Of a stretch of DNA of 64,000 nucleotides, positions 8,012 to 44,085 are shown one piece after another. Position 1 is the first letter of the stretch. Each line of letters starts with the position of its first letter. The translations under genes and the position numbers were made by a program. Origin of the DNA: a virus (taxonomy: Duplodnaviria; Caudoviricetes); the IMG/VR virus record IMGVR_UViG_3300042561_000440, positions 363 through 64,362 of that record. One strand, given 5' to 3'. The notes beneath the pieces are model-generated. The model saw only the letters and a list, made by a program, of their open reading frames with translations. It made no database searches and was not told the origin of the DNA.

Positions 8012-9280
8012 ATGTCTCTTCCAGCCATCCCCTGCCACTCGCCCTCGACTTTCTCCAACTGCGCCTCCGATGAGCGGGGCTACTGGAAAATCCGGGTACG
8101 GCAAGACACCGCAGAAAACTGGGCCAAGAACGACCCTGTTCTTGCCTCTGGTGAGTTTGGCTATGTGATTGGCTCTGCCAATCCGGGCCAGCTTCTGAAG
8201 ATTGGCGACGGCACCCTGCGGTGGAGCCAGCTTCCTTGGCTCATGGCCACGGGTAACTCCGGGCCCCCGGGTCCAGTCGGCCCTCCCGGCGGGAACATGG
8301 CCCTGACCATTCAGGCCAACGAGCCAGCCGTTGCCCCTCTGGGTGACCTGTGGCTCCAGCCTGTTTCAGCCAGTTCAGCCAACCTGTTCATCTCCAACGG
8401 GTTTGACTGGATTTCGGCAGGCTCTGCGGGCGGTGCAGCGGGCACCATCGACACCACGGCATTCAGCTATGGCAACCCACCGTACACGGGCGGTGCCACA
8501 TACATTCCGCCCAACTCCATTGCCGCCAATCCCAGCCCGGCGTACCCGCTTCAGGAGTACATCAACAGGCTGGAAGCTGCCCTGCGGAGCGGCCAGATCG
8601 CCAACTCAGGAAGCAGCACTGCCCTGTGGAGGCTGACGGTTGGCTCAAGCGTCACCATCGGCGGCCTTCTCAGCGTGGCTGGTGGCATCCGATACGGTGG
8701 AACCCTTGGGCCGATCACCAGAGCGGACGAGGAGCCCGAGTACACAGGCGGCTTTGAGCTTCCCCCTCCGACCCAAGACGGCTACCTCCGGGCCGATGCC
8801 GACGATAACAACTGGTACTTCCACGATCCGGTCATTGTCTCGGACACCCAGCCGCCGGAACCCCCGGTAGTTGGAACTCTCTGGGTCTATCCCGATGGTA
8901 CGGCCCCTTCCGAGAACTTCAGCTTTGTCAACCCTCCGGTCTACGCCGACGCCCCCATAGTCGAGCAACCCAACGGGCTCTCCATTGGCCTGTCTCCAGA
9001 CGGTCAGGAAATCCACCAGCCCTACATGGTTGGCGGTGTGAAAGTCCTCGTTGGCGGGAAGGCATACCTCCTGCCGCTTCTGGAAGCCCCGGCATTTGCC
9101 CCCGGGTCAGAGCCCACTCCCCTGTTCACCTACGACGATGACCCGATCACCCAGCAACTGAACGGCACCATCATCGGCATGAACGCTGATGGCACAGAGA
9201 TCACCCAGCCCTACATGGTGGGTGGCATTGCCGTCATCGTCCAAGGCAAGCGTTATTTGTTGCCGGTTATTGAAGAATAA
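8012..9280 (+). CDS. Fibre protein with Mtd/hyaluronidase-type N-terminal anchor and duplicated C-terminal module
   Basis: RQDTAENWAKNDPVLASGEFG..KIGDG..WSQLPW; short GPP collagen; two QPYMVGG...YLLP repeats. Confidence 0.75.
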   Translation: MSLPAIPCHSPSTFSNCASDERGYWKIRVRQDTAENWAKNDPVLASGEFGYVIGSANPGQLLKIGDGTLRWSQLPWLMATGNSGPPGPVGPPGGNMALTIQANEPAVAPLGDLWLQPVSASSANLFISNGFDWISAGSAGGAAGTIDTTAFSYGNPPYTGGATYIPPNSIAANPSPAYPLQEYINRLEAALRSGQIANSGSSTALWRLTVGSSVTIGGLLSVAGGIRYGGTLGPITRADEEPEYTGGFELPPPTQDGYLRADADDNNWYFHDPVIVSDTQPPEPPVVGTLWVYPDGTAPSENFSFVNPPVYADAPIVEQPNGLSIGLSPDGQEIHQPYMVGGVKVLVGGKAYLLPLLEAPAFAPGSEPTPLFTYDDDPITQQLNGTIIGMNADGTEITQPYMVGGIAVIVQGKRYLLPVIEE

Positions 9281-9904: not shown

Positions 9905-11988
9905 TGCCCGCCCCAGCCCGTCCCGCCCCCATCAAGGTCATTGCTGACTCGACCCGCTTCGCAAACGGGATCGTGGGTGTCTACACGGACGCTGAAGTCG
10001 ATGCTCTGCTTGCAAATCTGCCAGCAGGAGTTGGCGAACCCGCCATCACTGTCCACGCTGGGTCGCCCCCTGTGCCGCTCTCCGGTGACCCAACCCCGCA
10101 AGAGCTAGAAGACTCTTTTGCGGCCCTGTCCAATGGATTGCATTACTACCCAGACGGCGGGGCTCTTATTGCTGTCTTGCGTGGAGAATATCAGACAACC
10201 ATTACGATCACTGGTGCCGTCAAGTCGGTTGCCCAGATCGTCAAGTCTTCGGCGGGCCTGCCCACTCCCGACAACCCGTCAATGGTTGTCACGCAGATGG
10301 CTGACGGGAAGTGGTTTAGGGTCAAGGGCGACAGGCGGGATCAGCCGTTTGGCGACCCGGAGATAGTTGACATCTTCAAGTTGGTCAGTGGCGGTGACCT
10401 GACGGCTCTGAATGCCTACTACACGGGGCTGGAGGTCGAGGCCCTACTGGCTCCGATCAAGAATGACATCGCAGCCTTGGCATCCAACCAAGGCCAACAG
10501 CCACAGCCGGTAGACCTTGACCTTATCAACAGCCAGTTGCAGAGCCTCGCCACCATCACCCAAGACGTGATGGACAAGGTGGACGCCAAGGCCGACAAGA
10601 CCACGGTGGCAACTCTTAGCACCACCCTGATGAACTCCATCATGGAGGTGAAGGATGACGTTTACACCAAGTCCGAAGTCGATGACAAGCTGGAAGCCGA
10701 CAAGGACTTCTCCATTGCCAACGACAACGTGCTTCTGGGTCAGATCACCTCCCTCCAAGAGATCGTGTCCAATCTGGGCACTGACATCGGAACTGGCCAG
10801 ATCGACGTTCTGGATGCCATTCGGGACGTTGAGATTGAACCCTCAATGGTGTCGCTCACAGGGGATGCAAACTCCCCGATTGCGTGGAAGGGTGGCCTGT
10901 CCCTGACTCCGGTCAAAGAAGGTGACCACTGGCGGCTGAATTGGAATGACGGCAAGGCCATCCACACCCTTGTTCATGGCGACGAGTTCACTTCAGCCAA
11001 TATCGTCGCCGCACTGGCTAGCCAAGACGTTTCGGTGGCGAACCTCCAGACCGGGGGGCTTGAACTCAACGAACTGTTTATGGGTGCTGCCGGTGACCGG
11101 CTCATCACTCAGGTGGCTGGTGGCTCCGAGAACACGGTTGCCTACCTGTCTGACCTATCTGGCTATGCCCCGATCTCCACGACCACGCTCATCACAACCC
11201 AGATTCAGGCACTGTTCGACAGCATCTACACCCGGGCAGAGAGCGATGATCGGTATGCGGCCAAGTCGGACAACAGCCAGAACCTTTTTGCCAAGACCAT
11301 TGTGGCCCAAGCGGTTGGCTTTGGTGACTCAGCCCTAACCCCAGCCGCCCTGACCTATACCGATACCGGAGAAGGCTTTGGCCCACGGCTGGTGTTCGCG
11401 GTTGGCATGGTCAACGACTATGTGGCCCTGCGGAGTGACTTTGAGCCAATCAAGTCCCGCATAGACGCCCTTGAGAGCAAGGCCGAACCGGCTTCGGTTG
11501 ATGCCTACACGAAGGCACAGGTTGATGCCAAGCTGGCTGCCATTAACCCGACCAGTGCCGCCAACATCAATGACCCTGCCTTGGCTGCTTTCAAGAAGTC
11601 TGTGCTTGATGAAGTGAAGTTGATGCTGGTGGGCGGCACGAAAATGCCACCGGCAGACATTGATTGGACACCGATCATCCGAATGGAGGGCGCGAAGGAA
11701 ACAGCCTCAACGCAGATTGAAGCCCGAATGCTTGGCGGGTTCATCGAACTCAAGGGGACTTTGACGTTCAATGCTGGCAGCGGCGATTGGGTGCCGCTGC
11801 GACTGCCGCCACAGTTCCCGATGGCCGAAATTGAAGCGAAATACCCGCTTGCCATGCGGCTCGTTGGGTCTGCCGTTACCTATGGCTACTGCACCGTCAG
11901 CAACAAAAACCGCGACATCTATGTAAGTCCCGGCGCACGATCAAGCGAGGCGACATTTTCTGGCATTCGATGGAAGGCGGCGTACTGA
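9904..11988 (+). CDS. Tail/fibre protein
   Basis: Repeated YTxxEVD fibre motifs (YTDAEVD, YTKSEVD, YTKAQVD), coiled coil, C-terminal beta receptor-binding-like domain. Confidence 0.7.
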
Positions 11989-11990
11989 CA

Positions 11991-12953
11991 ATGCAAAACC
12001 GAAAAGCCTTTACCCTCGTTGAGTTGCTGGTGGTCATTGCCATCATCGGCACCCTCGTTGGCTTTCTCCTCCCGGCCATTCAGGCTGCGAGGGAGTCGGC
12101 CCGCAGGACCACCTGCACCAACAACCTCAAGCAGTTGTCCTTGGCCTGCATCAGCCATGAATCGGCCCAAAAGACATTCCCAAGAGGCACCAAGTGCTAT
12201 GACGGCAGCTATGCCAATCTGGCCAAGAAGAGCCCGGTGGTAGACGGGGATTTGCGCTGGCATCACGATCATGCCTTTTTGAGTTACGCCCTGCCCTACA
12301 TTGAGTCAGAGGCCACCATCAAGAGGTTCGATCAGGACAAGAGCTTCACCAACGAGGCCAACAAAGAGGCCCGCAGGGGAATGCTTGCCTTGTCATTCAT
12401 GGCCTGCCCTTCTGACATCGGACTCCAGAAGAACGAATGGGACTTGGATCGCTGGGCTAGGGTTCGCATGAACTACGTCTGCAACTACGGCAACACCAAC
12501 TACGGTCAGGCCACCAAGTCCGGCGTTGCCCACGGCGGTGCCCCTTTCACTATGGTGGTGGGAGTCAAGCCCGCACAGGTCACAGACGGCCTCTCCAAGA
12601 CGATGTTGCTGTCCGAAACAACTGTCACAGGCCCAGAGGACTCATGGCAGGGGCCACCTTCCGATGTGTCTTTTGCAAACGGCGGGCAAACATACACCGC
12701 ATGGCTCATCCCTAATAGCACTGTCTGCGAAGAGACTGTTAGGTATCCGACTGCCCTGAACGGCAGGCCAGCCGGATGTACTACGCTGGAGGATTGGGAG
12801 TTGCAGGTGCTGTCAGCCCGCTCCAAGCACCCGGCTGGTGTGGTGATAGCGAACTGTGATGGGGCCACCCGGCTCGTTGCCAATCAAGTTGACCTTGCCG
12901 TCTGGCGGTCTGCCAGCACTGCCAAGGGCGGCGAAACACTGGTACTGGAATAA
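11991..12953 (+). CDS. DUF1559 prepilin-type N-terminal cleavage/methylation protein with H-X9-DG motif
   Basis: [16 protein letters not shown]...[18 protein letters not shown]; CPSD; DGLSKT; [14 protein letters not shown]. Confidence 0.93.
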
Positions 12954-13737: not shown

Positions 13738-14262
13738 ATGAGAGATTGGTCGAAGTCCAGCCCGAAAGTCCACGTTACCGCCGAGCAACTCCGTGAGATG
13801 CACCATGATCGCCGGATGTCGTTCAAGGAAATGGGTGCCCAGCTTGGGTGCGGCAGGTCGCAAGTCCAGAGGCTAATGAAGAAGCACGGCATCGAAGCAC
13901 TCCCCGTAAACCGTCCAGAAAGAAGTGCCAAGATCGCCGCCAAGCGGAAAGGCCAGTTCACCCCCATGCAGGCCAAGTGGTCTGGTCGCTCCTGCCTCAA
14001 GGTCACCGTGGACGGCAAGCGAGTTCAAGCCCACCGAGCAATGGCAGAAATGATCCTTGGCCGAAAGCTCACTGCGGACGAGACAGTCCACCACTGCGAC
14101 AACGACCAAAAGAACAACAGCCCAGACAACCTGTGGGTGTTTCCAACCAAGGCAGATCACACCCGATACCACCGCACCGGAGAAGTCGCCATCGGCACCA
14201 TGCCGCTGGGCGAGTTTGTCATGCGGGGCCCACAACCAGTCAGCAATAACAAGGTGGCATAG
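13738..14262 (+). CDS. HNH endonuclease with N-terminal HTH
   Basis: SFKEMGAQLGCGRSQVQR HTH; AHRAMAE..LGRKL...VHHCDNDQKNNSPDNL; GGAGG RBS. Confidence 0.85.
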   Translation: MRDWSKSSPKVHVTAEQLREMHHDRRMSFKEMGAQLGCGRSQVQRLMKKHGIEALPVNRPERSAKIAAKRKGQFTPMQAKWSGRSCLKVTVDGKRVQAHRAMAEMILGRKLTADETVHHCDNDQKNNSPDNLWVFPTKADHTRYHRTGEVAIGTMPLGEFVMRGPQPVSNNKVA

Positions 14263-15710: not shown

Positions 15711-15881
15711 ATGACCGACGAGATTGATCGAGAAGTTGCCGACACTGAAGCCATGCTTGCCGAACTGAAGAAACGTCAGGCCGAAGAGGCAAAAATAACT
15801 GCCGTTCAGGACGCAGCACTTGCGAAAGTTCGTGCTGAATGTGCAGCGGCCCGTGCCGGACATTCAATTGACGAGGAGTGA
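15711..15881 (+). CDS. Small coiled-coil protein (possible fibre chaperone)
   Basis: AGGAG RBS; MTDEIDREVADTEAMLAELKKRQ..., 56 aa, below the ORF track cutoff. Confidence 0.6.
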   Translation: MTDEIDREVADTEAMLAELKKRQAEEAKITAVQDAALAKVRAECAAARAGHSIDEE

Positions 15882-15883
15882 CC

Positions 15884-18493
15884 ATGGTCTTTTCCCCCAG
15901 CACCTGCGAGCCCAAGCCCCAGACCTCTCCATTCAGGATGGTGAGCCGTCCTGCTATTGAGTGGTCTACGATCAACCCTGTGCTTGGGCTGGGGGAATGT
16001 GCCCATGAAACTGACACTGGCCGATTCAAGGTTGGTGACGGCAAGACTCCCTATAAGAACCTCGCCTACCAGATGAGCATTGGGGTTCCGGGCGAGCCGG
16101 GTCCAGTGGGCTCAGACGGACCTCCGGGCCCCCCGGGCCCTCGCGGCGAACGTGGTGAACAGGGTCCTGTCGGAGCGGCTGGTCCTGCCACGGTTCTCCA
16201 GATTGGGACGGTTGCATCTGGGCCAATTCCCAGCGTCACTCTGGTGGGCAATGCTCCCTTGCAGACTCTGAACTGGGTCATCCCCAAGGGTGAGAAGGGT
16301 GATGCCGGGGCCACCAACTCCTTGAAGATTGGCACGGTGGTGGCGGGCATCAACCCTGCCGCAACGATCACCGGAAATGCCCCCGATCAGACCCTCAATC
16401 TGGTGCTGCCAAGAGGCGAGAAGGGTGATGCCGGTGCGCAGGGGACCCCGGGTGTCAAGGGTGACCGTGGTGACGTAGGGCCCAAGGGGGACACCGGCGC
16501 AGGTGCTGTCATCAAGGGAACCGCCAGTGCCTATCCGCCCGTAGCGAACCCTGTAGTCAACGACCTCTACATCTTGGGCAGTGCCGCCTCCCTGACTGGT
16601 GCCCCTGCCTCCAGCGTTGGTCCTGCATCTGTTGGTGATGGCGTGGTGTGGACTGGGACTAGCTGGGTCAACGTCGGCCCGCTGCGAGGCTCCCAAGGTA
16701 TTCAGGGTAACGTCGGCCCTTCTGGTCCGGCTGGCCCCGCCGGTCCTGCCACCACCCTTGCCATCGGGGCTGTGTCAGCGGGCACTATTGCTCAGGCATC
16801 GCTGACGGGCACGGCTCCCAACCAGACCTTGAACTTGGTCCTGCCCAAAGGTGATGCCGGTGTGGCCGGGCCCAAGGGGGATGCTGGTGCGGTTGGCCCG
16901 GCTGGCCCGCCCAACTCGCTCACTGTCGGAACGGTCACCCAAGGCGTGGCTGGAAGTGCCCCCACTGTGACCATTACCGGAGTGGCCCCGGCCCAGACCA
17001 TCTCGTTCCGGTTCCCGGTTCCCGCCGACCCGGCTGTCAACAAGCTCTCGATTGGCACGGTGACTCAAGGTGGTGTCCCCAGTGCCACGATCACCGGGAC
17101 GCCCCCGAATCAGATACTCAATCTGGTGCTGCCTAATCCGCAGGTCACGCAGTCCACTTCGTTCTCGGTCAACCCTGTCAACGCCTCTGGGTTTGTAGGC
17201 GAGTCTGTTTCATTTACGGCCACCGCCCAATCCACAGAAGGCCCTCTGGTCTACAAGTGGCAGGTGTCAAACGACAACGGGGCGACCTTCGCCGACATTA
17301 CCGGGGCTGGCACAAACACCTACACATTCACCCCTGTTCTTGCAGATTCTGGGAAGCGGTACAGGTGTGTTGCTACCACTCCCACGCTGGGGCCCACTTA
17401 CAGCCTGATTGCAACACTGACTGTCACGGTCAGGCCCATTCCAGATGGCTCGTCGTGGCGAGCCGGGGTCGCAAATGGCTCAGGATACATCGAGTTCCTC
17501 AATGGCCTGTTCATTGCTGGCAACGGACGTTGGTCTACGGACGGTGCCGAATGGACGAACGCAATGCCGACAGGAATCGATCTGTTTCATCGCGGAGCTT
17601 TCGGGAACGGAACGTGGGTTGCTGGCAAGAGAGTGCCAGCGGAGTTCGTGACCGGCCTCAGCACAAGGCCCGAATACTTTGTTGCCTGCACTAGTGCTGA
17701 CGGCAAAAACTGGACTGCAAGAGAGTCCTTCAGTTTGTTTGGCGGAAATCTTTTGGGATCACAAAACGCAATCTTTGGATACGGATTTGGAAAGTTTGTC
17801 TGCTTCTACAGCACAGAAAGAAACTACTACGTCCAAGGGTCCACCGTTGTCCGAAAGCTAAATGTAATTGTTGCTATGTGGAGTTCTGACGGGATCACTT
17901 GGAACAACTGCCCTGCCATTACCGGAATGGTGACAGGAAACTCGCCGCTAAATACCGCTGCAACGGGCTTTACGGCAACGGCACAGGCCAATGCCTTTAC
18001 GAGAATGACCTCCGTGGCCACAGGCACCGGCAACAGCCCGCTCATGGTAGCCACCGGATTGATAGTGTCAGGCGCAACGAACCAATACTTAGCCAGTGCC
18101 GATGGAATCACTTGGGTTCTGAAAACTTTCCCAGCGTTTGTTGCCGTGCAGGACGTTGCTTTTGGTGCCACTAACTTTGTGGCTGTCGGAACGGGCGGTG
18201 TCTGCTTCCGCACAGCTACGCCAGCAACTCCGCTTACCACCGCAAGCATTGCTTTCTCGGTTGCCAATATGCCAGCAACTGCAAGCTGGAGTGGCATCAC
18301 CTATGGAAACGGCAAGTTCGTGGCAGTGGCAAACGGATCGGCCACGGCAGCTAACTCCGTTGACGGGGCTACATGGGCACAGAAGACCCTGCCGAGCAGT
18401 TCTTTGTGGGATGGCGTGGCGTTCGGCAACAACAGGTTTATTGCGTCAGCCGCCGCTGGCACCACCACTGCCGCCACCGCCATCAGTGATTAG
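15884..18493 (+). CDS. Long collagen fibre with Ig-like domain and C-terminal beta-propeller-like repeats
   Basis: Mtd-type N-terminus (NPVLGLGECAHETDTGRFKVGDG), Gly-X-Y plus IGTV..G..LNLVLP repeats, YKWQVSND..YRC Ig, SxDGxxW / FGNG repeats. Confidence 0.85.
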   Translation: MVFSPSTCEPKPQTSPFRMVSRPAIEWSTINPVLGLGECAHETDTGRFKVGDGKTPYKNLAYQMSIGVPGEPGPVGSDGPPGPPGPRGERGEQGPVGAAGPATVLQIGTVASGPIPSVTLVGNAPLQTLNWVIPKGEKGDAGATNSLKIGTVVAGINPAATITGNAPDQTLNLVLPRGEKGDAGAQGTPGVKGDRGDVGPKGDTGAGAVIKGTASAYPPVANPVVNDLYILGSAASLTGAPASSVGPASVGDGVVWTGTSWVNVGPLRGSQGIQGNVGPSGPAGPAGPATTLAIGAVSAGTIAQASLTGTAPNQTLNLVLPKGDAGVAGPKGDAGAVGPAGPPNSLTVGTVTQGVAGSAPTVTITGVAPAQTISFRFPVPADPAVNKLSIGTVTQGGVPSATITGTPPNQILNLVLPNPQVTQSTSFSVNPVNASGFVGESVSFTATAQSTEGPLVYKWQVSNDNGATFADITGAGTNTYTFTPVLADSGKRYRCVATTPTLGPTYSLIATLTVTVRPIPDGSSWRAGVANGSGYIEFLNGLFIAGNGRWSTDGAEWTNAMPTGIDLFHRGAFGNGTWVAGKRVPAEFVTGLSTRPEYFVACTSADGKNWTARESFSLFGGNLLGSQNAIFGYGFGKFVCFYSTERNYYVQGSTVVRKLNVIVAMWSSDGITWNNCPAITGMVTGNSPLNTAATGFTATAQANAFTRMTSVATGTGNSPLMVATGLIVSGATNQYLASADGITWVLKTFPAFVAVQDVAFGATNFVAVGTGGVCFRTATPATPLTTASIAFSVANMPATASWSGITYGNGKFVAVANGSATAANSVDGATWAQKTLPSSSLWDGVAFGNNRFIASAAAGTTTAATAISD

Positions 18494-33500: not shown

Positions 33501-34292
33501 GGTGCCGAGGACGAGTACGTTCCCGCCCGCATTGCTGACAAGTATGGTGTCTCTCTTGAGCCTCTCCGCAAGATTCCCGGCATGGCACCCCTTGTTGACG
33601 CCATTGCACCAGCCGATGCTAGCGTTACATCGTGGGTATCCGACATTGATCTTCCCGGCATAGATCAGATCAATATGTTCCGGCCTAAGGTGGACCCTGA
33701 AACCGGGGCCATCTACCCGCTCAAGACCACGACCGACTCGCTTCTTAGCTTGGCCGAAGGTGCCCACCCACTTATCAAGGCTGGCGTTGAGCTAGGCACC
33801 GGACGGGACACATACACCGGGATCAAAAAAAACTACGCCCGCTCGACCCTGCCTAAAGTCCTGTCCAATCTGGGGATGCTGGGCCCCGAGAGCTACAAAA
33901 CAGCAGAAAGCCTAGGCATCCTCGACACCGCACTTCAGTTCGCAGTGCCCGGCTACAGCCGATCTGGCCAGCTAATCCGCAGGCTGACAGACCCGAGGCT
34001 AGAGAACCCCGGGACGGCGGCGGCTCAGGCTCTATTCAATATGTTCACTGGAGCCAAGATCGAAAACATTGACGATCAGGAAAAGACCCGAGACGCCTTG
34101 GATAAGATCAGCGAGATTCTGGCAGACGATCCAGCCGTCAGGAACTTTGAAAGCACCTATATCCCTAAAGAACTCCTGCCGGTGGTGGACGAGCGAACCC
34201 GGCAGCTATACCAACTCGACCGCCAGCTTCGGAAAGAACGCAGGCAGATTCAGAATGTGAAGCCAGACCGCTATAACCCGCTCAATTACTAG
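30546..34292 (+). CDS. Large ejection/polyvalent-type protein
   Basis: 1248 aa; DPLTY motif; VDYSSLTKFEK..IRNAIPFWSY and HPLIK..VEL.TG.D.YTG motifs of large phage internal proteins; GGAGG RBS before TTG. Confidence 0.65.
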   Translation: MDPFAYPGFSDKPKKPIIGYGQQYGLTYNGFDEDVQKEQLSLPERNELLDTLSDYGAPAVSGLFDGLDWLGSQARSAITGKEDASEEDVLKAAGLLPSEEALGGWGRPIAKIAAGIATDPLTYTGLGALGSAATQAGKAAKAAGFLDDAARAASRTQVDNIISGAAKVDDLSWIGKRAQKQFLDDTGTDITRLSDEDLFARPLIGQGQARRDMTLGELLERQRDWGQAHYDESFENLQDFFARNGGDLASLQDTKLTNDINFGLPSYGWNVGFNVPLGESAMKAADAAGDLFRWSAPGRYAHAAFDQSVHGATQAADQIELAKLSRSDAITSAAGRREANRVVSLLPQFKDAATDIRMGNAIRNVIEEVGPTLAGDARVAHDEVLKALTDFRAGTATGEAAQIGQFIDEWKNLSKRYIDRSRDVGIGGGELDDTFGTQYFPRVLDDATFNKGGGGPSRGTDYSRMTSDQIARKASFHVPGGTNTLQELSLDPRLAGQMRTAANDELAADIIQQVMQQKIGQLRAAGRPMVDATGAPLTYSRQNAISLAKTLREIDPDAIAKKLPIFGQHPAESVAKYITGREKAMGRAGVIYNTLGRSAMPVRHTQVTGGGADSALDTLNDLGLNTIDRRGLMLPPGVADIEGAKVQLLDRLHAIGLKNGIPEFAYGNVDSLSNVSFDSRAIKTLQRIADFYEVPEVQSSMFKILDAVTTLWKSSILAWPSRFVRDFYSGAFSNFVLVTHPTDMMNGYASAKHLIQGRSEELDEILQLMPRYKRYATPEERAQKYLGDLAAAGISKGRQLEDVGQSALAKQSGEGIRAELHAGAAPQTTFGFQVTDLLSGRMPLSSRHSAGAELLDLGNWKKSLSDAPQTFLDAVQGKKSDELVNPVLRASAKLGDTTDKLNRIAGYNGLLLQGVSPEQAAKMVMEFHVDYSSLTKFEKGWIRNAIPFWSYQSRIGKWALKQIVTKPGGAFTQAGIRAPQVLSQNGAEDEYVPARIADKYGVSLEPLRKIPGMAPLVDAIAPADASVTSWVSDIDLPGIDQINMFRPKVDPETGAIYPLKTTTDSLLSLAEGAHPLIKAGVELGTGRDTYTGIKKNYARSTLPKVLSNLGMLGPESYKTAESLGILDTALQFAVPGYSRSGQLIRRLTDPRLENPGTAAAQALFNMFTGAKIENIDDQEKTRDALDKISEILADDPAVRNFESTYIPKELLPVVDERTRQLYQLDRQLRKERRQIQNVKPDRYNPLNY

Positions 34293-35125
34293 CCTGCTAT
34301 TGGAGGCGGTGATGGACAGGAGTTTGGCAGTAGGCTCTTATCAATATAGTGCTTCATAGCAAGCTCGGGTGAGCGGTGTCCCAAGAAGCGGCTGGCCTGA
34401 CCGGGATTGGTCGCCTCGACCCACGTTGCCCCGGTCCTTCGCATCCACTTGCAGGTGCCAATCACGCCCGCCTGTTTCACCAGACGCGCCCACCTGATCC
34501 GCAGCCACCGCTCTGCCAGTGCCCAGCGGAAAATGGTGCCGTCTTTTGAGCGGACACTTAGGTCGTTGAGAATCCGGCTGCACTCCGGTGACAGAACGTG
34601 GACGATGCCGTCGCCGGTTTTGTGCTGGATGGTGTGCAGCCTGCCGTCCCGAATCTGGTGTGCCTTGAGGTTGAGCAGGTCGCTGAACCTGAGGCCGCAC
34701 TCGTACCCCGCCAACAGCCAGCCGCTGAAGAAGAGGGCCGCCGGGCACCCGCTCTGTAGGTTGCCAGAAAGTTGACGGGCGTGGTGCAGCAGACGCCGCA
34801 GTTCCTCCTGTGTCCATGCAACCGGCGGTGACAGCGGTGCCTTGACTCTGCGCACACCGTCCGTAAAATGTGTGGCACTGGGACCGAGGGCAGCCCGCAC
34901 AACCGTACAGGCCTGCCGCCGGTAATTCGCCTTGGTTTGTTTGGAGCAGGCCAGCGAGTCGAGCCAGTTGTTGATCGATTCAGGATTCAGGTTGGCCACG
35001 GATGTCACGCCAAACGCGGACAGTCTCTCGACTGTCCTGTACAGATGCCGCCGGTAGTTGGGGCAGACCTCTCTCTGCGAGAGGTATCGGTCCAGCACTG
35101 CCTTCAGCGGTGTCTTGTCTGTCAT
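34289..35125 (-). CDS. int: Tyrosine integrase
   Basis: GLRFSDLLNL (R), QHKT (K), KWMRR (variant HxxR), LGH...HY; probable start ATG 35125. Confidence 0.9.
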   Translation of the reverse strand: MTDKTPLKAVLDRYLSQREVCPNYRRHLYRTVERLSAFGVTSVANLNPESINNWLDSLACSKQTKANYRRQACTVVRAALGPSATHFTDGVRRVKAPLSPPVAWTQEELRRLLHHARQLSGNLQSGCPAALFFSGWLLAGYECGLRFSDLLNLKAHQIRDGRLHTIQHKTGDGIVHVLSPECSRILNDLSVRSKDGTIFRWALAERWLRIRWARLVKQAGVIGTCKWMRRTGATWVEATNPGQASRFLGHRSPELAMKHYIDKSLLPNSCPSPPPIAG

Positions 35126-35261
35126 TGGTGGTACGTCGTGGCGTCCACTATCCTGACCAGTCTTTCGCGGTCGTGCCGTTCCCCCCAAAGATGGCGACTT
35201 CTTTTTGGGGGTCTTCTCCCCGCTGTGTTTTTTCCGACAAAAAAAGGAATCGTGAACCCTC

Positions 35262-36221
35262 ATGGATAACTCCAGCAATGAGGGAAGTGTTGCTTCTACC
35301 AGTGATGCCGGTTACGCTGCCGTGGATTGCGGGCGTAACTCAGTTGGTAGAGTGCTAGCTTCCCAAGCTACCTATCGTTCGGTTGATGTTCGGCACGGCG
35401 AATCCAACGAGGATTACCACGCCGACCGGGGGCACTTCTCTTGCTCCCAGATCAAAGACTTCATCGAGTCGCCGTCTTACTTCCATAGACGGCACATCCT
35501 CCGGTGTGAACCATCGCCCTCTTCAGAGAGCTTGGCCAGAGGAACGCTTGTTCACCTTTGCTTTGAGCTTGGGTGGGAAGCTGCTGCCGACCGGATCAAG
35601 GTCATCCCGGCAGAGCATCTGACCGGCACTGGTCTCCTGTCCACTAAGGCTGACAGCAAGAAGTGGGTGGCCGATCAGGGTGACGCCATTCTGGTCACCC
35701 CTCAGGACGCAGAGTTCCTGACCGAGGTGCAGTCTCAATGCACCTTGAACAAGGCGGTGTCCAAGCTGCTGGACAGCCTCATCCACAAAGAAGTCTCCAT
35801 CCGGTGGTCGAGGGACAACGGCACCAAGCTGCGGTGCAGGCCTGACGCCATCACTAACGATGGCAGGGTGGTTGATTACAAGACCACCAAGTACCGGAAT
35901 CCTGCCAAGGATTTTTGGAGAGCATGTAAGGACTACATGTATGGGCTGCAATCAGCCCTTTACCAAGAGGGTGCAGCCGCCGCTGGGTTCAGTGACGAGC
36001 CCCTCATCTTTGTCCTCATCAGCACGGCCTCTCCGTGCGTGATTGCCAAGACCCTTCCCCAAAGGTTTATCGACCTTGGGAAGACCCAGTTGGATCGTGC
36101 ATTGGCTGATCTGTCTGCACGGATGTCGTTCGGTGACTGGACCCCCGATGGATATGGGTCCATCGATGAATTGTATATGCCCGAATTCTGTTTCAAGGAT
36201 TACCAAGGAGGTGACGCATGA
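35262..36221 (+). CDS. RecE/exonuclease VIII-like PD-(D/E)XK nuclease
   Basis: SNEDYHA, SCSQIK, GTLVH, LRCRPD, VVDYKTT, YGLQSALY. Confidence 0.88.
   Translation: MDNSSNEGSVASTSDAGYAAVDCGRNSVGRVLASQATYRSVDVRHGESNEDYHADRGHFSCSQIKDFIESPSYFHRRHILRCEPSPSSESLARGTLVHLCFELGWEAAADRIKVIPAEHLTGTGLLSTKADSKKWVADQGDAILVTPQDAEFLTEVQSQCTLNKAVSKLLDSLIHKEVSIRWSRDNGTKLRCRPDAITNDGRVVDYKTTKYRNPAKDFWRACKDYMYGLQSALYQEGAAAAGFSDEPLIFVLISTASPCVIAKTLPQRFIDLGKTQLDRALADLSARMSFGDWTPDGYGSIDELYMPEFCFKDYQGGDA
35290..35318 (+). promoter_or_regulatory. Sigma70-type promoter TTGCTT-N17-TACGCT just upstream of the tRNA half
   Basis: Exact 17-nt spacer, TAnnnT -10 ending 10 nt before tRNA position 1. Confidence 0.55.
35329..35370 (+). 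tRNA. 5' half of tRNA-Gly(CCC); candidate attP core
   Basis: GCGGGCG-TA-ACTC-AGTTGGTA-GAGT-G-CTAGC-TTCCCAA-GCTA; no T-arm or 3' acceptor follows; about 200 nt from int. Confidence 0.8.
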
Positions 36222-36841
36222 CTGCTATGTATGGCGAACGCTCGGCCCAAGTTGACCAGTTGTTTGAGGCCCTTAGTAAGTTCCATGGAGACATTACCAA
36301 TGTTGAACGGACTCGACAGGGTGAGTTCGGTTTGTATGCCGATCTTGGTGCCTGCTGGGACAAGGTTCGGAAGGCTCTTGCTGCCAATGGGCTCGGCCTT
36401 ACTCAACCTATTCTCCCTTATGGATCGGACGGGTCTCTGGCTGTTGTGTCTCACCTTGGGCATTCCTCAGGCCAGTACCTCATCTCGGCTATCCCGCTCA
36501 CGCCGGGACTGAATATGCAGGAGCTTGCCGGTGAGGCTACCTATGCCCGCCGCATTGCCATGAGCGGACTGCTGGGGCTGGCTGCCGACTGGGATGACGA
36601 TGGCAAGCAGGCAAAGGCCAACCATCAGGCTCACAGGTATGCCAACGATACCGACCGCAAGTGGTGCGAGAAGGCAAAGAAGGCGATCAGCGATGCCCTC
36701 TATGCCGCCGATGGTGATGCCCTCACTGAGGTGCAGCACAAGATCGAGAAGGCTGTGAAGGACGGCCACATCTCTCCTGCCAGCCAGCAGATGCTGGAAG
36801 AGTATGCCGCCAGCGTTGGAGAGGAGGTGACCAATGCTTAG
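36218..36841 (+). CDS. erf: ERF-family ssDNA annealing protein
   Basis: YADL..., HSSGQ, TYARR..MSGLLGLAADWDDDG. Confidence 0.88.
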   Translation: MTAMYGERSAQVDQLFEALSKFHGDITNVERTRQGEFGLYADLGACWDKVRKALAANGLGLTQPILPYGSDGSLAVVSHLGHSSGQYLISAIPLTPGLNMQELAGEATYARRIAMSGLLGLAADWDDDGKQAKANHQAHRYANDTDRKWCEKAKKAISDALYAADGDALTEVQHKIEKAVKDGHISPASQQMLEEYAASVGEEVTNA

Positions 36842-37322
36842 CGACAAGCAGGTCAATGACCTTGAGAACCTGATTGTGTTCTCAACCATGGACAACCTTC
36901 CTCTGATTCTTTCCCGTGCCATCCCGTTGTTGTTCAGCGAGTTGCGTCTGGTGAGGGCCACGCTCGACAGCAAGGTTGGCGACTTCCTTGGAGGCATCCA
37001 TGACCAGCGAGAAGAGGTGGGTGAAGGTGCAGGTGATAGCGGACTACCACCACGGCATGAGCCTGTGGAAGCTGGCCCAAAAGTATCGGGGGATGGCCAC
37101 GCAGGTGGAGATCAGGCAGTGGCTGGGGAACAAGGTGAGGCCCAAGAGCGGGGAGATGGAACACATAGACGAAAGCGAGGTCGCCCAAAGAAAGCTGGAG
37201 GTTCAGTCTCACTGGACACCGGAGCAAGCCAGCAAGAGGTGGGTGGGGAGGCTGATCCAGCCCAAGGTTTCGATTCACTCCTCGGCATCGAAGCTACTCC
37301 CAGACTGAAAGGCGGTGCCTGA
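36834..37322 (+). CDS. Hypothetical protein; its low-complexity C-terminal part overlaps the next gene
   Basis: GGAGGTG RBS. Confidence 0.5.
   Translation: MLSDKQVNDLENLIVFSTMDNLPLILSRAIPLLFSELRLVRATLDSKVGDFLGGIHDQREEVGEGAGDSGLPPRHEPVEAGPKVSGDGHAGGDQAVAGEQGEAQERGDGTHRRKRGRPKKAGGSVSLDTGASQQEVGGEADPAQGFDSLLGIEATPRLKGGA
37000..37308 (+). CDS. HTH-like protein nested in another frame
   Basis: GGAGG RBS before ATG 37000; ADYHHGMSLWKLAQKY....EIRQWL. Confidence 0.55.
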   Translation: MTSEKRWVKVQVIADYHHGMSLWKLAQKYRGMATQVEIRQWLGNKVRPKSGEMEHIDESEVAQRKLEVQSHWTPEQASKRWVGRLIQPKVSIHSSASKLLPD

Positions 37323-37528
37323 TGGGTCTCGCATTGACCAGAAGGATTGGAGAGTCCGTGTTGCTTGTGTGCAGGGAGATTGGCCCGATCAAGGTCACCA
37401 TCACTGGCCGTGGCCAGAACCCCAACCACATCAAGATCAACATCGAGGCACCGCAGAACGTCAACATCATCAGGGAAGAGTTACTCGACAAAGAAAGGCG
37501 GAAGGATTCGCATGACAACAGCTACTAA
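37322..37528 (+). CDS. csrA: Carbon storage regulator CsrA homologue
   Basis: LALTRRIGESV...IKINIEAPQNVNIIREEL. Confidence 0.88.
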   Translation: MGLALTRRIGESVLLVCREIGPIKVTITGRGQNPNHIKINIEAPQNVNIIREELLDKERRKDSHDNSY

Positions 37529-40188: not shown

Positions 40189-40566
40189 ATGAGCAAACAG
40201 AAGGAGCGTTCGATGCGGATGCTGGAGGCCTATGCCATCCAATGCACCCGCTGTGCAGTGTGCTGGTGGCGGAAGTACAGGCCGGGGAGAAGGTGCGAAC
40301 TGCACCATATCGTAGGCCGTCGAGGCAAAGACCCACATCACCATAGGAACATCATCATGGTGTGTGACCAATGCCATTACGGCTATCACTCCGGTGGGCA
40401 GAAGGCCCTGACGCTTGGCCAAATTCTCAAGGCCAAGGAGGAAGAGGACGGGGAGGTTGACATCCCATTCCTTGCCGGTCTGTGCGGCAAGGTGGGGCTG
40501 CGGGAAGACCCTTCACCGCTGCCGGAATGGGCCATTCAAGAAAGGGAAATCAATGCCAATAAATAG
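40189..40566 (+). CDS. HNH-fold nuclease
   Basis: CAVC, ELHHIVGR, NIIMVCDQCH. Confidence 0.75.
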   Translation: MSKQKERSMRMLEAYAIQCTRCAVCWWRKYRPGRRCELHHIVGRRGKDPHHHRNIIMVCDQCHYGYHSGGQKALTLGQILKAKEEEDGEVDIPFLAGLCGKVGLREDPSPLPEWAIQEREINANK

Positions 40567-40963
40567 CAGACAAAAAGGAAAGAGAGGAGAGCTAGACCTA
40601 TGCCATTCGCTGATCTCTGTGTTGGGTTGGTCGGGAACCAGACGGGCGCAGCAATTCAATGGAAGTGCAGGCCACGCGGATGTGGTGATTCCCCAGCTAC
40701 CGAGAGTGTTTCCCGAGTGCAAGCTGGTCAACAGGCTGAACCTGAGCGAGGCGATGAAGGTAGCCGTAGCCCAATGCCATGGACTTATCCCTGTAGTATT
40801 CCACCGGAGGGACAGGGAGGAGTGGATGGTAACGGTGAGGCTGTCGGACTGGAGGGAACTGTCGATGATGGTCGCCGCCGCTACCCCTCAGGAGCAGTCC
40901 GATCCCACCTGCCAGAGCGATACGACCTTGTGCCCACCATCGGGCTCCAGCGAGTCGCCATGA
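40553..40963 (+). CDS. Holliday junction resolvase-like PD-(D/E)XK nuclease
   Basis: NSRQKGKRGE, ADVV, ECK, PVVFHRR..EEWMVT. Confidence 0.8.
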   Translation: MPINSRQKGKRGELDLCHSLISVLGWSGTRRAQQFNGSAGHADVVIPQLPRVFPECKLVNRLNLSEAMKVAVAQCHGLIPVVFHRRDREEWMVTVRLSDWRELSMMVAAATPQEQSDPTCQSDTTLCPPSGSSESP

Positions 40964-41163
40964 CCATGGCAGAGGGTGCCGCCAAGTATGGGGAACACAA
41001 CTGGCAGAAGGGATTCCCCGTGCCGGACATCCTGAACCACGCCTTGGCTCATGTCTTCAAGTATCTGTCCGGGGACCGGGCAGAAGATCACCTTGGCCAT
41101 GCCGCAGCCAATCTGCTTATGGCTATTCACACGGAGGAGAGCAATGGAAAAGATCGAGGATGA
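40822..41163 (+). CDS. dATP/dGTP diphosphohydrolase (DUF5664-like)
   Basis: SGAVRS..RYDLVP, GAAKYGEHNW.KG, EDHLGHAAANL; start uncertain (GTG 40822). Confidence 0.8.
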   Translation: MDGNGEAVGLEGTVDDGRRRYPSGAVRSHLPERYDLVPTIGLQRVAMTMAEGAAKYGEHNWQKGFPVPDILNHALAHVFKYLSGDRAEDHLGHAAANLLMAIHTEESNGKDRG

Positions 41164-41685: not shown

Positions 41686-42236
41686 AACGCACCTACACCG
41701 ACAACTCGCTGACCCCCGAGCAGCAGGCGGTTGTCGAGGAAGCAGTGCTGTTAGTCCCGGCCTGCATCAAAAGCTTCCTGAACTCAATGCCATGCCTGAG
41801 GGAAGTCGCAAGAGAGTGCGACCTAAAGAGTGCCGCCTACATGGCCTGCTGCCGGGCAGCTAGGACATACGAGAGGGGCAAGGGTATAAGCGTATCCGCT
41901 TACTTCTCCATCGCCATAAAGAATGGGATGCTAAGGGAGGTTCAGAAGGAGCTTAAGTCAAACGCTTACTCCATAATGCGGATACCATTGGAGCAGGTCT
42001 ATGACCGGGAGCCTCCCAAGAGAGAGGCAAACCCAACGGCCATGCCCTCCATGCTCACGCTGACTGAGACTGAGAGGGATTGGGTGGAGCGGTTTGTGTT
42101 TGATGGTCAGAACAAGGGGGGGAGCTTTCGGGCGTTTGGCAGGGAGTCGGGGCGTGATTGTCGGACTGCGAAGAAGATGCTTCGCTCGATTCTGGACAAG
42201 CTTCGGTCTGCGATTGAGGATCACCCTGACGCCTAG
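41682..42236 (+). CDS. Phage sigma70-family factor
   Basis: Region-2-like DLKSAAYMACCRAARTYERGKGISVSAYFSIAIKNGMLRE; degenerate region 4 LTETERDWV...LDKLR. Confidence 0.72.
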   Translation: MKRTYTDNSLTPEQQAVVEEAVLLVPACIKSFLNSMPCLREVARECDLKSAAYMACCRAARTYERGKGISVSAYFSIAIKNGMLREVQKELKSNAYSIMRIPLEQVYDREPPKREANPTAMPSMLTLTETERDWVERFVFDGQNKGGSFRAFGRESGRDCRTAKKMLRSILDKLRSAIEDHPDA

Positions 42237-43008
42237 TGTATTTCCTTGGGGTCTTGGTGGCCTTGCCCATCTTGATTGACCCACCCCGGGCGGTGAGTTC
42301 CCTGAACCCGTCCCGCCCGGGGTAGCCAGCAGCCCTAGCCTTGAGGGCATAGTGGAACCAGCACTGCCAATACTGGTCGCCATTGGCCCGCCTTATCCCC
42401 TTCTTCCTAAGGTATTCTGCGATCCCCTTCCAAGTCTTGCCGTGCTGGTCATGCTGCACGATGGCCCACTCAATGATCTTGCGTTCGGTGTGGTCCCAGT
42501 CCCACTGACCGGCACTGTTCTTCTTCCAGCCTACGGGCGGCCTATTCCCAGCAGGCAGGCCCTTCTCTGCCCGGATGGCCATGGCTTCTTTGGTTCGCTG
42601 GCTAATCCAGTGTCGCTCCAGTTCCGCCACTGACCCAAGCAAGTGCATGACGAACTTGCCCAGCGGGGTGGCTGTATCCAAGGCAACGTCCAGAGACAGG
42701 AAGCCAATGCCCTTGGCGTCGAACATCTGGATCAAGTGGGTCATGTCGAACAGGTTACGGAAGGCCCGGTCCATCTTGGACCAGCACACAACGTCACCCT
42801 TCTGGGCCAGCACCCACAGCTTCAGCCCCTCAGGCCGCTCGGTAAAAGGCTTGCCGCCCGAGGTAGCCTTGTCCTCAAAGAACCCGCCCCACTCATGGGT
42901 CTCACTAAACCGTGCATCATAGGTGGCACGGATAACCTTTTGCTGTGCCTCAAAGGTATAGGCCTGACCAGATGTCGAAGCCCGGCAGTATCCGTAGAAG
43001 GTTGGCAT
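42055..43008 (-). CDS. Serine recombinase (resolvase catalytic domain plus recombinase DNA-binding domain)
   Basis: YGYCRAST, EDKATSG, RPEG, MDRAFRN, AELER..ISQRTK, PPVGW, IAEYLRKKG. Confidence 0.9.
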   Translation of the reverse strand: MPTFYGYCRASTSGQAYTFEAQQKVIRATYDARFSETHEWGGFFEDKATSGGKPFTERPEGLKLWVLAQKGDVVCWSKMDRAFRNLFDMTHLIQMFDAKGIGFLSLDVALDTATPLGKFVMHLLGSVAELERHWISQRTKEAMAIRAEKGLPAGNRPPVGWKKNSAGQWDWDHTERKIIEWAIVQHDQHGKTWKGIAEYLRKKGIRRANGDQYWQCWFHYALKARAAGYPGRDGFRELTARGGSIKMGKATKTPRKYTRRQGDPQSQTEACPESSEASSSQSDNHAPTPCQTPESSPPCSDHQTQTAPPNPSQSQSA

Positions 43009-43016
43009 GGTTTCCC

Positions 43017-43322
43017 CTAAGTACAATACCTCATGACATTAACGAACCCGTCGAATCCCTTTTCGCCAGCTTCCGGCAGCCGTGCAAACACCTTTGCGTT
43101 GTGCTTCCTGACCTCTGTTAAATACCTTTTCTTGTAGGTGCGGTTAGGAAACGTCTCGTACAAAACGTGGTTAATGACACGCCCATCTCTTGCAGTTTCT
43201 GACAAGCATGTGGCGTTCACAACCATCGAGGTGCAGAAGGGGAAGCCAGCGTACTGGCATTGCTGCCACCGAACAGACCACCCCAAGGCAGTGGCACACT
43301 CAATGAATTCATTCACTGTCAT
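43017..43322 (-). CDS. Hypothetical protein
   Basis: AGGAGG RBS before ATG 43322. Confidence 0.55.
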   Translation of the reverse strand: MTVNEFIECATALGWSVRWQQCQYAGFPFCTSMVVNATCLSETARDGRVINHVLYETFPNRTYKKRYLTEVRKHNAKVFARLPEAGEKGFDGFVNVMRYCT

Positions 43323-43527
43323 CGCCGCCCTCCTGACTGATGTGCTTGTCTTTCCACCCCGCTGGTGACCAGTGGTGTTCAGCGTACCGGACGGCAGCCA
43401 GAACCTTTTGCTTAGTCTCATCGTCCAAGAAATTGGTTGGCCCCTCTGCCGCCATGACTGTCGCACTTCGGGAAACGATTGTCCACATTCCGTCCTGAAC
43501 TGTCTTAGTCCACGCTGGCTTACTCAT
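43309..43527 (-). CDS. Hypothetical protein
   Basis: ATGA coupling with upstream LexA-like gene. Confidence 0.55.
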   Translation of the reverse strand: MSKPAWTKTVQDGMWTIVSRSATVMAAEGPTNFLDDETKQKVLAAVRYAEHHWSPAGWKDKHISQEGGDDSE

Positions 43528-43748
43528 TTGAGGTAGTCTCTCCAGTTGAATTGAATTGCTCGGCACCCGCTCCGTTTGCAGGCACCCTTCTTCTCGCAGG
43601 CTTTCAAGTGGCCTAGCACCGCGCCCGGTGACTTGAATCCAAAGTGCCGCATGATCTCTCGGTACGATGGCTGGATTCCTTTCTTGTCGATTGACTTGGC
43701 GATATACCCAAGGACTTTCTGCTGTTGCTTGGTAAGTGCTTTATGCAC
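43524..43748 (-). CDS. LexA-type DNA-binding domain only
   Basis: LTKQQQKVLGYI...G..PSYREIMRHFGFKSPGAV..HLKA.EKKG; AGGAG RBS before GTG; no S24 peptidase domain. Confidence 0.82.
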   Translation of the reverse strand: MHKALTKQQQKVLGYIAKSIDKKGIQPSYREIMRHFGFKSPGAVLGHLKACEKKGACKRSGCRAIQFNWRDYLK

Positions 43749-43758
43749 AGGTGAACTC

Positions 43759-44085
43759 CTAGTTTGACGCTGCCTCTGCCGAAGCCGCCGCACACTCTGG
43801 ACACCGATCCAGAAACCCCTTGTGCAGGAGGTCGGCCCGGACGCAAGCCTTGGTTCCGCAGGTACACTGAACGTGGACCAGTTCGATACGCTCCTCATCA
43901 ACGAGTGTGACCTCCCCGTCAGACAGAACCTTCAGCCCGGTAGCAATCATGAGTTCGCCGTTGGCCGGGTCCACCCAGTAGTTGGCGATCCTTGGGTGGA
44001 AGGCGGGCTCGATGCTGGGCCAAAATTTATGGAACAAACAGTTGGGTGTGACACACTTTGGCTTCCGTTTCTTTTTCTTAGCCAT
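43759..44085 (-). CDS. Zn-finger hypothetical protein
   Basis: CTCG...CPEC. Confidence 0.6.
   Translation of the reverse strand: MAKKKKRKPKCVTPNCLFHKFWPSIEPAFHPRIANYWVDPANGELMIATGLKVLSDGEVTLVDEERIELVHVQCTCGTKACVRADLLHKGFLDRCPECAAASAEAASN

Follow-up and report, generated by a model that had tools for sequence, protein, structure and literature searches.

A host tRNA-Gly(CCC) 5' half within a phage nuclease reading frame: a probable attachment site whose 5' and 3' forms alternate among sister phages

What does a bacteriophage do with the first half of a host tRNA gene, placed next to its integrase gene and read through by the frame of a predicted nuclease? The question is raised by a 64,000-nt stretch of viral DNA (the window), which covers bases 363-64362 of the 64,362-bp IMG/VR virus record IMGVR_UViG_3300042561_000440, a genome with direct terminal repeats that is rated 100% complete. 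Elements that integrate in tRNA genes usually carry the 3' part of their target, the common explanation being that the host promoter stays with the 5' part. We compared this locus with host genomes and with related phages. The results support well a reading in which the half is the identity block of a phage attachment site (attP) of a 5' type, and sister phages are found to carry the opposite half at the same place.

The tRNA piece occupies positions 35329-35370 on the plus strand, with the anticodon CCC at 35362-35364. In the GTDB collection of species-representative genomes this 42-mer matches exactly one contig at one locus (L002), located in a Pirellulales metagenome-assembled genome, where it forms positions 1-42 of an intact tRNA-Gly(ccc) gene as called by ARAGORN. 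The identity is unbroken over 43 nt (35328-35370; 48/50 nt by blastn), and hence begins essentially at tRNA +1 and ends after position 42. According to our own arithmetic, an exact match of 42 nt is not expected by chance even in ~6e11 bases. The first 41 nt are moreover identical in at least 11 Pirellulales tRNA-Gly(CCC) genes among the matches listed, and 148/401 genomes match the 5' pattern. Running ARAGORN on the whole window yields no tRNA genes, and cmscan scores the piece at 22.6 bits against the tRNA model (E 0.028), below the gathering score of 29, as would be expected of half a tRNA. The block thus includes the anticodon stem-loop of a host tRNA gene, but instead of running from the anticodon arm to the 3' end it runs from position 42 back to position 1. 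An initial annotation, made from the letters alone, had proposed a 5' half of tRNA-Gly(CCC) beside the integrase gene and inside a RecE-like open reading frame (ORF). All of this is confirmed: the half is real and not a chance likeness, matches a host gene at 42/42 positions and lies 203 bp from the integrase gene. The predicted host phylum, Planctomycetes, also proved right, and the tRNA match supports Pirellulales as the host order of this phage group.

The neighbouring gene encodes a tyrosine integrase of 278 aa (34289-35125, minus strand; start taken at ATG 35125). Its PF00589 score is 27.5 bits at a cut-off of 27.1, and residues R146, K169, R230, H250 and Y260 are invariant across four homologues. 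Divergent from it runs the nuclease ORF (35262-36221, plus strand), a predicted PD-(D/E)XK enzyme (DUF3799, RecE-like) with matches above cut-off to PF12705 (48 bits, cut-off 22, E 2e-12) and PF12684 (46.1 bits, cut-off 26, E 6.8e-12) over residues 58-286. This ORF reads through the tRNA piece, where its translation includes CGRNSVGRVLASQA. Between the two genes lies the P arm (35126-35261) with a terminator-like hairpin at 35206-35222 on the plus strand, followed by a T-rich tail. The hairpin is present in the consensus fold of 6/6 phages, with scant covariation; together with its T run it would insulate the site from upstream transcription. Part of the same region (35170-35233, plus strand) consists of a C run, a G run and a second C run, then a T run, as does the equivalent in each of the five related phages introduced below. 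Pairing of the G run with one C run or the other would form a terminator-like hairpin or an alternative one immediately 5' of the operon ATG, and the element looks like an attenuator.

The comparison set comprises six phages: the window and the related contigs L003, L010, L034, L057 and L058. All share one layout, in which the integrase gene is followed by the conserved intergenic region, the sequence RACCCTCATG, a tRNA piece and the downstream gene. The piece itself comes in two kinds: the window and L003 carry the 5' half, and the other four carry the anticodon arm plus the 3' half. L003 (with its metagenome twin L005) has the same 42 nt as the window at an integrase identity of only 55% and flank identities of 65-68%; the att region is the best-conserved stretch between these two genomes (81% over 140 nt). 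L010 (same contig as L006) is much closer to the window, at 92.6% over 9.7 kb with integrases 99% and nucleases 88% identical. Between a conserved ...CTCCAG and the nuclease it nevertheless contains tRNA positions ~29-76, that is, the anticodon arm, variable loop, T arm and 3' acceptor strand. Since opposite halves occur under 99% identical integrases, the cassette type does not follow the integrase. L034 in turn is close to L003 (flanks 78-96% identical), and here the homology breaks exactly at the cassette. The T arm differs in each of the 3' halves of L034, L057 and L058, as if these tracked different host alleles.

An Rfam search did not report the 3' halves of L010 and L034 at E<=1; their tRNA nature rests on a pattern common to 153/401 genomes and on ARAGORN calls at the simulated junctions described below. 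Scanning viral contigs with the leader motif gave 10 loci, among which only L003 and L010 are relatives, the other eight being chance matches. We also considered an ancestral full-length tRNA at attP, and rejected it as no vestige of a missing half was seen: right of the core the window has no likeness to a tRNA 3' part (p 0.89), nor does the L034 leader resemble a 5' half (p 0.45). The same test on the L010 leader against the 5' half gave a p of 0.012, uncorrected.

Alternation of the halves also narrows down the crossover. All six attPs have just one tRNA segment in common, AGCTTCCCAAGCTA (35357-35370, plus strand), which corresponds to tRNA positions 29-42 and forms an AGCTT/AAGCT inverted repeat around CCC. 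As this segment alone is common to the 5' and 3' types, strand exchange is placed within positions 29-42, and the crossover should fall in these 14 bp, in the anticodon-centred class. We recombined each phage in silico with the tRNA gene of genome G001 in the middle of the anticodon loop and ran the products through ARAGORN. For both 5'-type phages (window and L003) tRNA-Gly(ccc) is found only at attR, the integrase side; for the 3' types (4/4) it is found only at attL, the nuclease side. Both cassette designs therefore restore the tRNA gene in silico, and with the 5' part this happens at the junction distal to the host promoter.

From the identity to the host tRNA, the common layout, the alternation of halves and the open frames, all of which come directly from sequence comparison, we infer the following mechanism. 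The adjacent tyrosine integrase would recombine the 14-bp anticodon-arm core with the host tRNA-Gly(CCC) gene, using a phage copy that, starting at the core, extends back to tRNA position 1 and not on to the 3' end. At attR, on the integrase side, an intact tRNA would then be formed by the phage 5' half and the host 3' half. At attL, on the other side, the displaced host 5' fragment would remain behind the host promoter, fused to the remainder of the nuclease gene. Because in the 5' design only a dead 5' fragment stays with the host promoter, the rebuilt tRNA needs transcription from the phage side, for which TTGCTT-N17-TACGCT, 10 nt upstream, is the candidate promoter. Nuclease and ERF form a translationally coupled operon, and the cassette would sit in frame within the 5' end of its leading gene, so that integration would separate this operon from its conserved ATG and upstream region. 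Finally, the cassette appears to be modular, as sister phages with the same integrase carry the canonical solution, anticodon arm plus 3' half. That positions 35329-35370 are the attP identity block of a temperate Pirellulales phage, with the mechanism as outlined, is in our judgement probable.

The consequences for the operon follow from its reading frame. Ahead of the tRNA piece lies a leader (35262-35328, plus strand) consisting of an ATG, whose context RACCCTCATG is conserved in 6/6 phages, and 22 codons. From this ATG the frame stays open through the piece in all six. It runs on into the nuclease in the window, L003, L010 and L057; in L034 and L058 it enters an inserted gene of the HNH type. 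At least five distinct junctions downstream preserve it. Of the three frames of the 5' piece two are closed, and the open one is the frame in use; the 3' piece can be read in two of its three. In L010 the stretch from the leader ATG to codon 81, well beyond the conserved YH motif at codon 42, is free of in-frame ATG, GTG and TTG codons. L003 has in-frame GTGs at codons 20 and 30, as does the window. In the window the only in-frame starts ahead of the YH motif are these two, GTG 35322 (codon 20) and GTG 35352 (codon 30); this agrees with the earlier statement that no start codon of these three kinds lies between the tRNA half and that motif. The leader peptide itself is poorly conserved. Its conserved stretches are kept at third codon positions too, and the constraint is therefore on DNA and not on protein. 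We consider it likely that the ATG is the start of the operon and the cassette a tolerated N-terminal passenger.

Downstream, the gene for an ERF-family single-strand annealing protein (36218-36841, plus strand; PF04404, E 3.8e-9) starts within the nuclease stop (ATGA), and owing to this overlap loss of the nuclease start should also depress ERF. With a frame open from the conserved ATG in 6/6 phages and no other start in L010, integration would detach the nuclease gene, first in the nuclease-ERF operon, from its start. The initial annotation had foreseen such a decapitation; the open frames bear this out, while GTG 35352 as a possible alternative start leaves that part of the claim qualified. 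The HNH-type gene, of ~250 aa, lies between the att cassette and the nuclease in L034 (1714-2465) and, at the same position, in L058, and shares the frame of the leader ATG. In L034, the only HNH-carrying phage read that far, the stop codon of this gene and the nuclease ATG overlap, so that the gene is coupled to a nuclease with its own ATG.

The promoter-like motif noted earlier is indeed present ahead of the tRNA half: TTGCTT at 35290-35295, a 17-nt spacer and TACGCT at 35313-35318 on the plus strand. L003 has both hexamers at identical spacing, whereas 8/17 spacer bases differ by our own count, and the motif is absent from all four 3'-type leaders. In Pirellulales, host tRNA-Gly(CCC) genes are preceded at a distance of 14-16 nt (in L002, 40 nt) by TTGCnA-N17/18-TAGACT, to which the phage motif is similar in the positions TTGC..TA..CT. 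A host origin of the phage motif was considered and dropped, as no extended similarity to the upstream regions of 12 full-length host tRNA genes (L002, L041-L051) was seen. The chances that the motif functions as a promoter are, in our view, about even. As to the claim that integration puts an intact tRNA-Gly under a phage promoter, the first half is supported by the tRNA rebuilt on the integrase side in simulation, and the second half comes down to a conserved motif.

Other elements appear to use the same tRNA gene in the same orientation. In genome G212 the host promoter and tRNA-Gly(CCC) positions 1-41 are followed by a break and then by a tyrosine integrase gene (L039, G212:C54, 3469-3509). 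A further contig of this genome (L040, G212:C372, 2364-2437) carries mobile-element-like ORFs, a complete tRNA-Gly(CCC) and host genes. In G151 (L052, G151:C50) and in metagenome contig L004, the host leader and tRNA positions 1-40/42 likewise run into foreign DNA, the first bases of which look alike in both. These displaced 5' fragments in G212, G151 and L004, each located behind a host promoter, indicate other 5'-type elements at the same tRNA, and by this pattern the 5' design does exist in integrated form within Pirellulales. Extra 5' fragments in G330 and G147 turned out not to be real, as the tRNAs concerned are cut or duplicated at contig ends. By pattern counts (3' pattern in 153/401 genomes, 5' pattern in 148/401), G067, G068, G114 and G201 have, among the matches listed, an extra 3' fragment of the canonical type.

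Some minor observations concern the same genomes. L004 has IS66-like ORFs upstream. On G201:C5 a complete tRNA-Gly(CCC) and a same-strand 3' fragment lie 96 kb apart (1491198-1491241 and 1587512-1587583), a candidate canonical island or prophage. G093 contains two identical complete tRNA-Met genes on short contigs (L021/L038 on G093:C141, and L037 on G093:C138), one of them in divergent orientation at 111 bp from a homologue (34% identity) of the window integrase; this may be an element with a whole tRNA gene at its att site.

A number of results weigh against the proposed mechanism. A simple sigma-70 scan found no sites in 34900-35700 and did not call the motif, which matches only 6/12 positions of the E. 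coli consensus. A GCTGCCG that overlaps the -10 element also occurs in the 3'-type leaders, and conservation of this part may reflect protein binding and not promoter function. Integrated forms of the phage were not found either. Scans of genome, viral and metagenome collections for the exact 42-mer returned one genome contig (the empty attB of the host), one other viral contig (L003) and two metagenome contigs (L005 and L004), none with the arms of the window phage. In 401 Pirellulales genomes the best match to the integrase is 40% identical, with 23/401 genomes at E<=1e-20 and no lysogen among them, and the nuclease has no matches in 120 genomes of the host's family. The attL and attR junctions that the initial annotation had suggested looking for were thus not seen for the window phage or a close relative in these samples, which does not show that lysogens are nonexistent. 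The integrase of the G212 element is unrelated to that of the window (BLASTP E 0.47) and adjoins the displaced fragment instead of the rebuilt tRNA; the junctions of this element lie on two different contigs. Lastly, an in-frame GTG lies inside the tRNA piece in the window, L003, L057 and L034, and in the first three is a possible true nuclease start. The free-standing nuclease of L034 starts 19 codons before YH (own count), and starting at the GTG would give a similar 20-21.

These last two points are also the basis of a different view of the locus, in which TTGCTT-N17-TACGCT is the ordinary promoter of nuclease and ERF, and the nuclease starts at GTG 35352, which is in frame in both the window and L003. 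After integration the phage promoter would drive the tRNA and the host tRNA promoter would drive the operon, and nothing would be silenced. The terminator-like hairpin and T run between the integrase gene and the ATG fit as well, leaving little room for a promoter upstream of the ATG. Nonetheless, L010, with an 88% identical nuclease, lacks both the motif and any in-frame start in the codons from the ATG up to codon 81, all six phages share the ATG with its context, and the frame is preserved over all those downstream junctions; we therefore regard such an exchange of promoters as unlikely. Still less probable is the original interpretation of integration as the lysis-lysogeny switch itself, needing no repressor. 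It draws on the loss of its start expected for the leading gene of a translationally coupled early operon, and on mycobacteriophage BPs, where an attP within a gene is reported to act as a switch. The gene split here, however, encodes a PD-(D/E)XK nuclease and not a regulator. Also the accompanying remark that there is no clear CI-type repressor was not quite right: at 43524-43901 (minus strand) the window encodes a 125-aa protein with a LexA_DNA_bind domain (PF01726, E 3.8e-18) and without a peptidase domain, which is a candidate prophage repressor. The switch proposal as made is consequently not upheld.

Might the piece instead be debris, either of a former phage tRNA gene or of a dead att site at which the phage no longer integrates? 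The failure to find a lysogen in the searched collections would agree with this. Decay is absent, though: the 42 nt are intact (42/42) relative to a living host gene and to the copy in L003, in spite of the distant integrase of the latter. The piece furthermore ends exactly at tRNA +1, and sister cassettes track different host 3' halves, making a relic very improbable. A role as RNA, with the half-tRNA as a decoy or tRNA-like element in the operon transcript and not as a DNA site, we find hardly credible. It is true that the piece would be transcribed within the operon and that cmscan sees a partial tRNA likeness, but it adjoins the integrase gene, complementary 3' halves take the same place in sister phages, and the vestige test returned no acceptor or T arm partner downstream.

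Returning to the attP of a 5' type, the site can be compared with known systems. In the Islander collection (PMC4383910), 159 of 3919 islands have a 5' fragment and 3760 a 3' fragment, and 2083 sites are anticodon-centred ('site A'). Section 7 of PMC6563490, citing Zhao & Williams 2002, describes the use of the 5' part of a tRNA gene for recombination as 'considerably less frequent'. The earlier statement that most tRNA-targeting attPs carry the 3' part agrees with these Islander counts. Site A resembles the window in having a tyrosine integrase beside a block identical to the host tRNA, with a symmetric anticodon stem-loop and a tRNA restored on integration (in the window, in silico). The usual site A block extends from the anticodon arm to the 3' end, as in L010, L034, L057 and L058, whereas that of the window extends to the 5' end. 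In itself, the 5' half is a further member of a documented minority class. Elements of 'reversed target orientation', recombining with the tRNA 5' part, were reportedly described by Zhao and Williams in 2002. In these, as would be the case in the window, a 5' fragment is displaced and the element-borne 5' part must bring its own transcription. What sets the window apart is that a phage gene reads through its cassette in frame, and that among phages sharing one integrase a 3' cassette can stand in its place.

Integration-dependent immunity in mycobacteriophage BPs is similar as regards an attP inside a phage gene whose product is reportedly altered by integration. In BPs and relatives the attP gene is said to be the repressor, which loses its 3' end on integration. 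In the window the split gene is a nuclease, it is the 5' end, start codon and upstream region that would be removed, and the candidate repressor is encoded elsewhere. Another unusual answer to tRNA loss by a tyrosine integrase that targets a tRNA gene is tRNA-dependent lysogeny (Guerrero-Bustamante & Hatfull 2024, PMC10865867). There the core is ~10 bp, the tRNA is not rebuilt and a complete phage tRNA gene is present; the window has a 42-nt block, a tRNA rebuilt in silico and no tRNA gene of its own. In the literature searched, without subscription papers and supplements and hence as a weak negative, no description was found of 5' and 3' halves alternating under one integrase, nor of a conserved in-frame attP at the 5' end of an early operon. 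The swapping of att halves among sister phages is a new result here.

A more general idea may be put forward tentatively. One integrase lineage of planctomycete phages would use exchangeable att cassettes, either a 5' half with its own promoter or a 3' half, always embedded without a frame break in the gene that opens the early recombination operon. The tRNA would be restored by both kinds, and every integration would sever the operon from its translation start, to be rejoined upon excision. If true, the orientation of attP can evolve as a module that is swapped among phages, and phage recombination functions have an off-switch built into integration. Opposite halves under 99% identical integrases amount to a natural experiment, which indicates that the integrase does not determine which half is carried, and their alternation narrows the crossover to 14 bp without bench work. 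The tRNA match ties an uncultured 64-kb phage group to Pirellulales. Attachment sites conserved in reading frame are candidates for gene control by integration distinct from the mycobacteriophage repressor systems, and the integrase/attP pairs are possible integration tools for planctomycetes.

The remaining gene content of the window includes structural-type genes, namely a portal, tail proteins with collagen-like repeats and Mtd_N, and a DUF1559/N-methyl protein, besides the integrase, nuclease, ERF and LexA-DNA-binding-domain genes discussed above and those for CsrA, a helicase and a small serine recombinase. The CsrA homologue (37322-37528, plus strand; PF02599, E 1.6e-10) lies within the nuclease-ERF-helicase operon. 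The serine recombinase (42055-43026, minus strand), of 323 aa with a Resolvase N-terminal domain (E 4e-30), is the second recombinase of the genome; at this size it is more likely an invertase or resolvase than an integrase. HNH endonuclease genes are found at 741-1448, 13738-14262 and 40189-40566. The product of 40600-41163 (plus strand) matches the N-terminal domain of dATP/dGTP diphosphohydrolase (PF18909, E 2.5e-16), a possible sign that the phage manipulates nucleotide pools or modifies DNA. At 8012-9280 and 15878-18493 (plus strand) lie genes for tail-fibre-like proteins that contain Mtd_N and collagen repeats. Amid the structural genes, at 11970-12953 (plus strand), the DUF1559 protein has a prepilin-type N-methylation motif (E 9e-40); proteins of this kind are abundant in, and typical of, planctomycete genomes.

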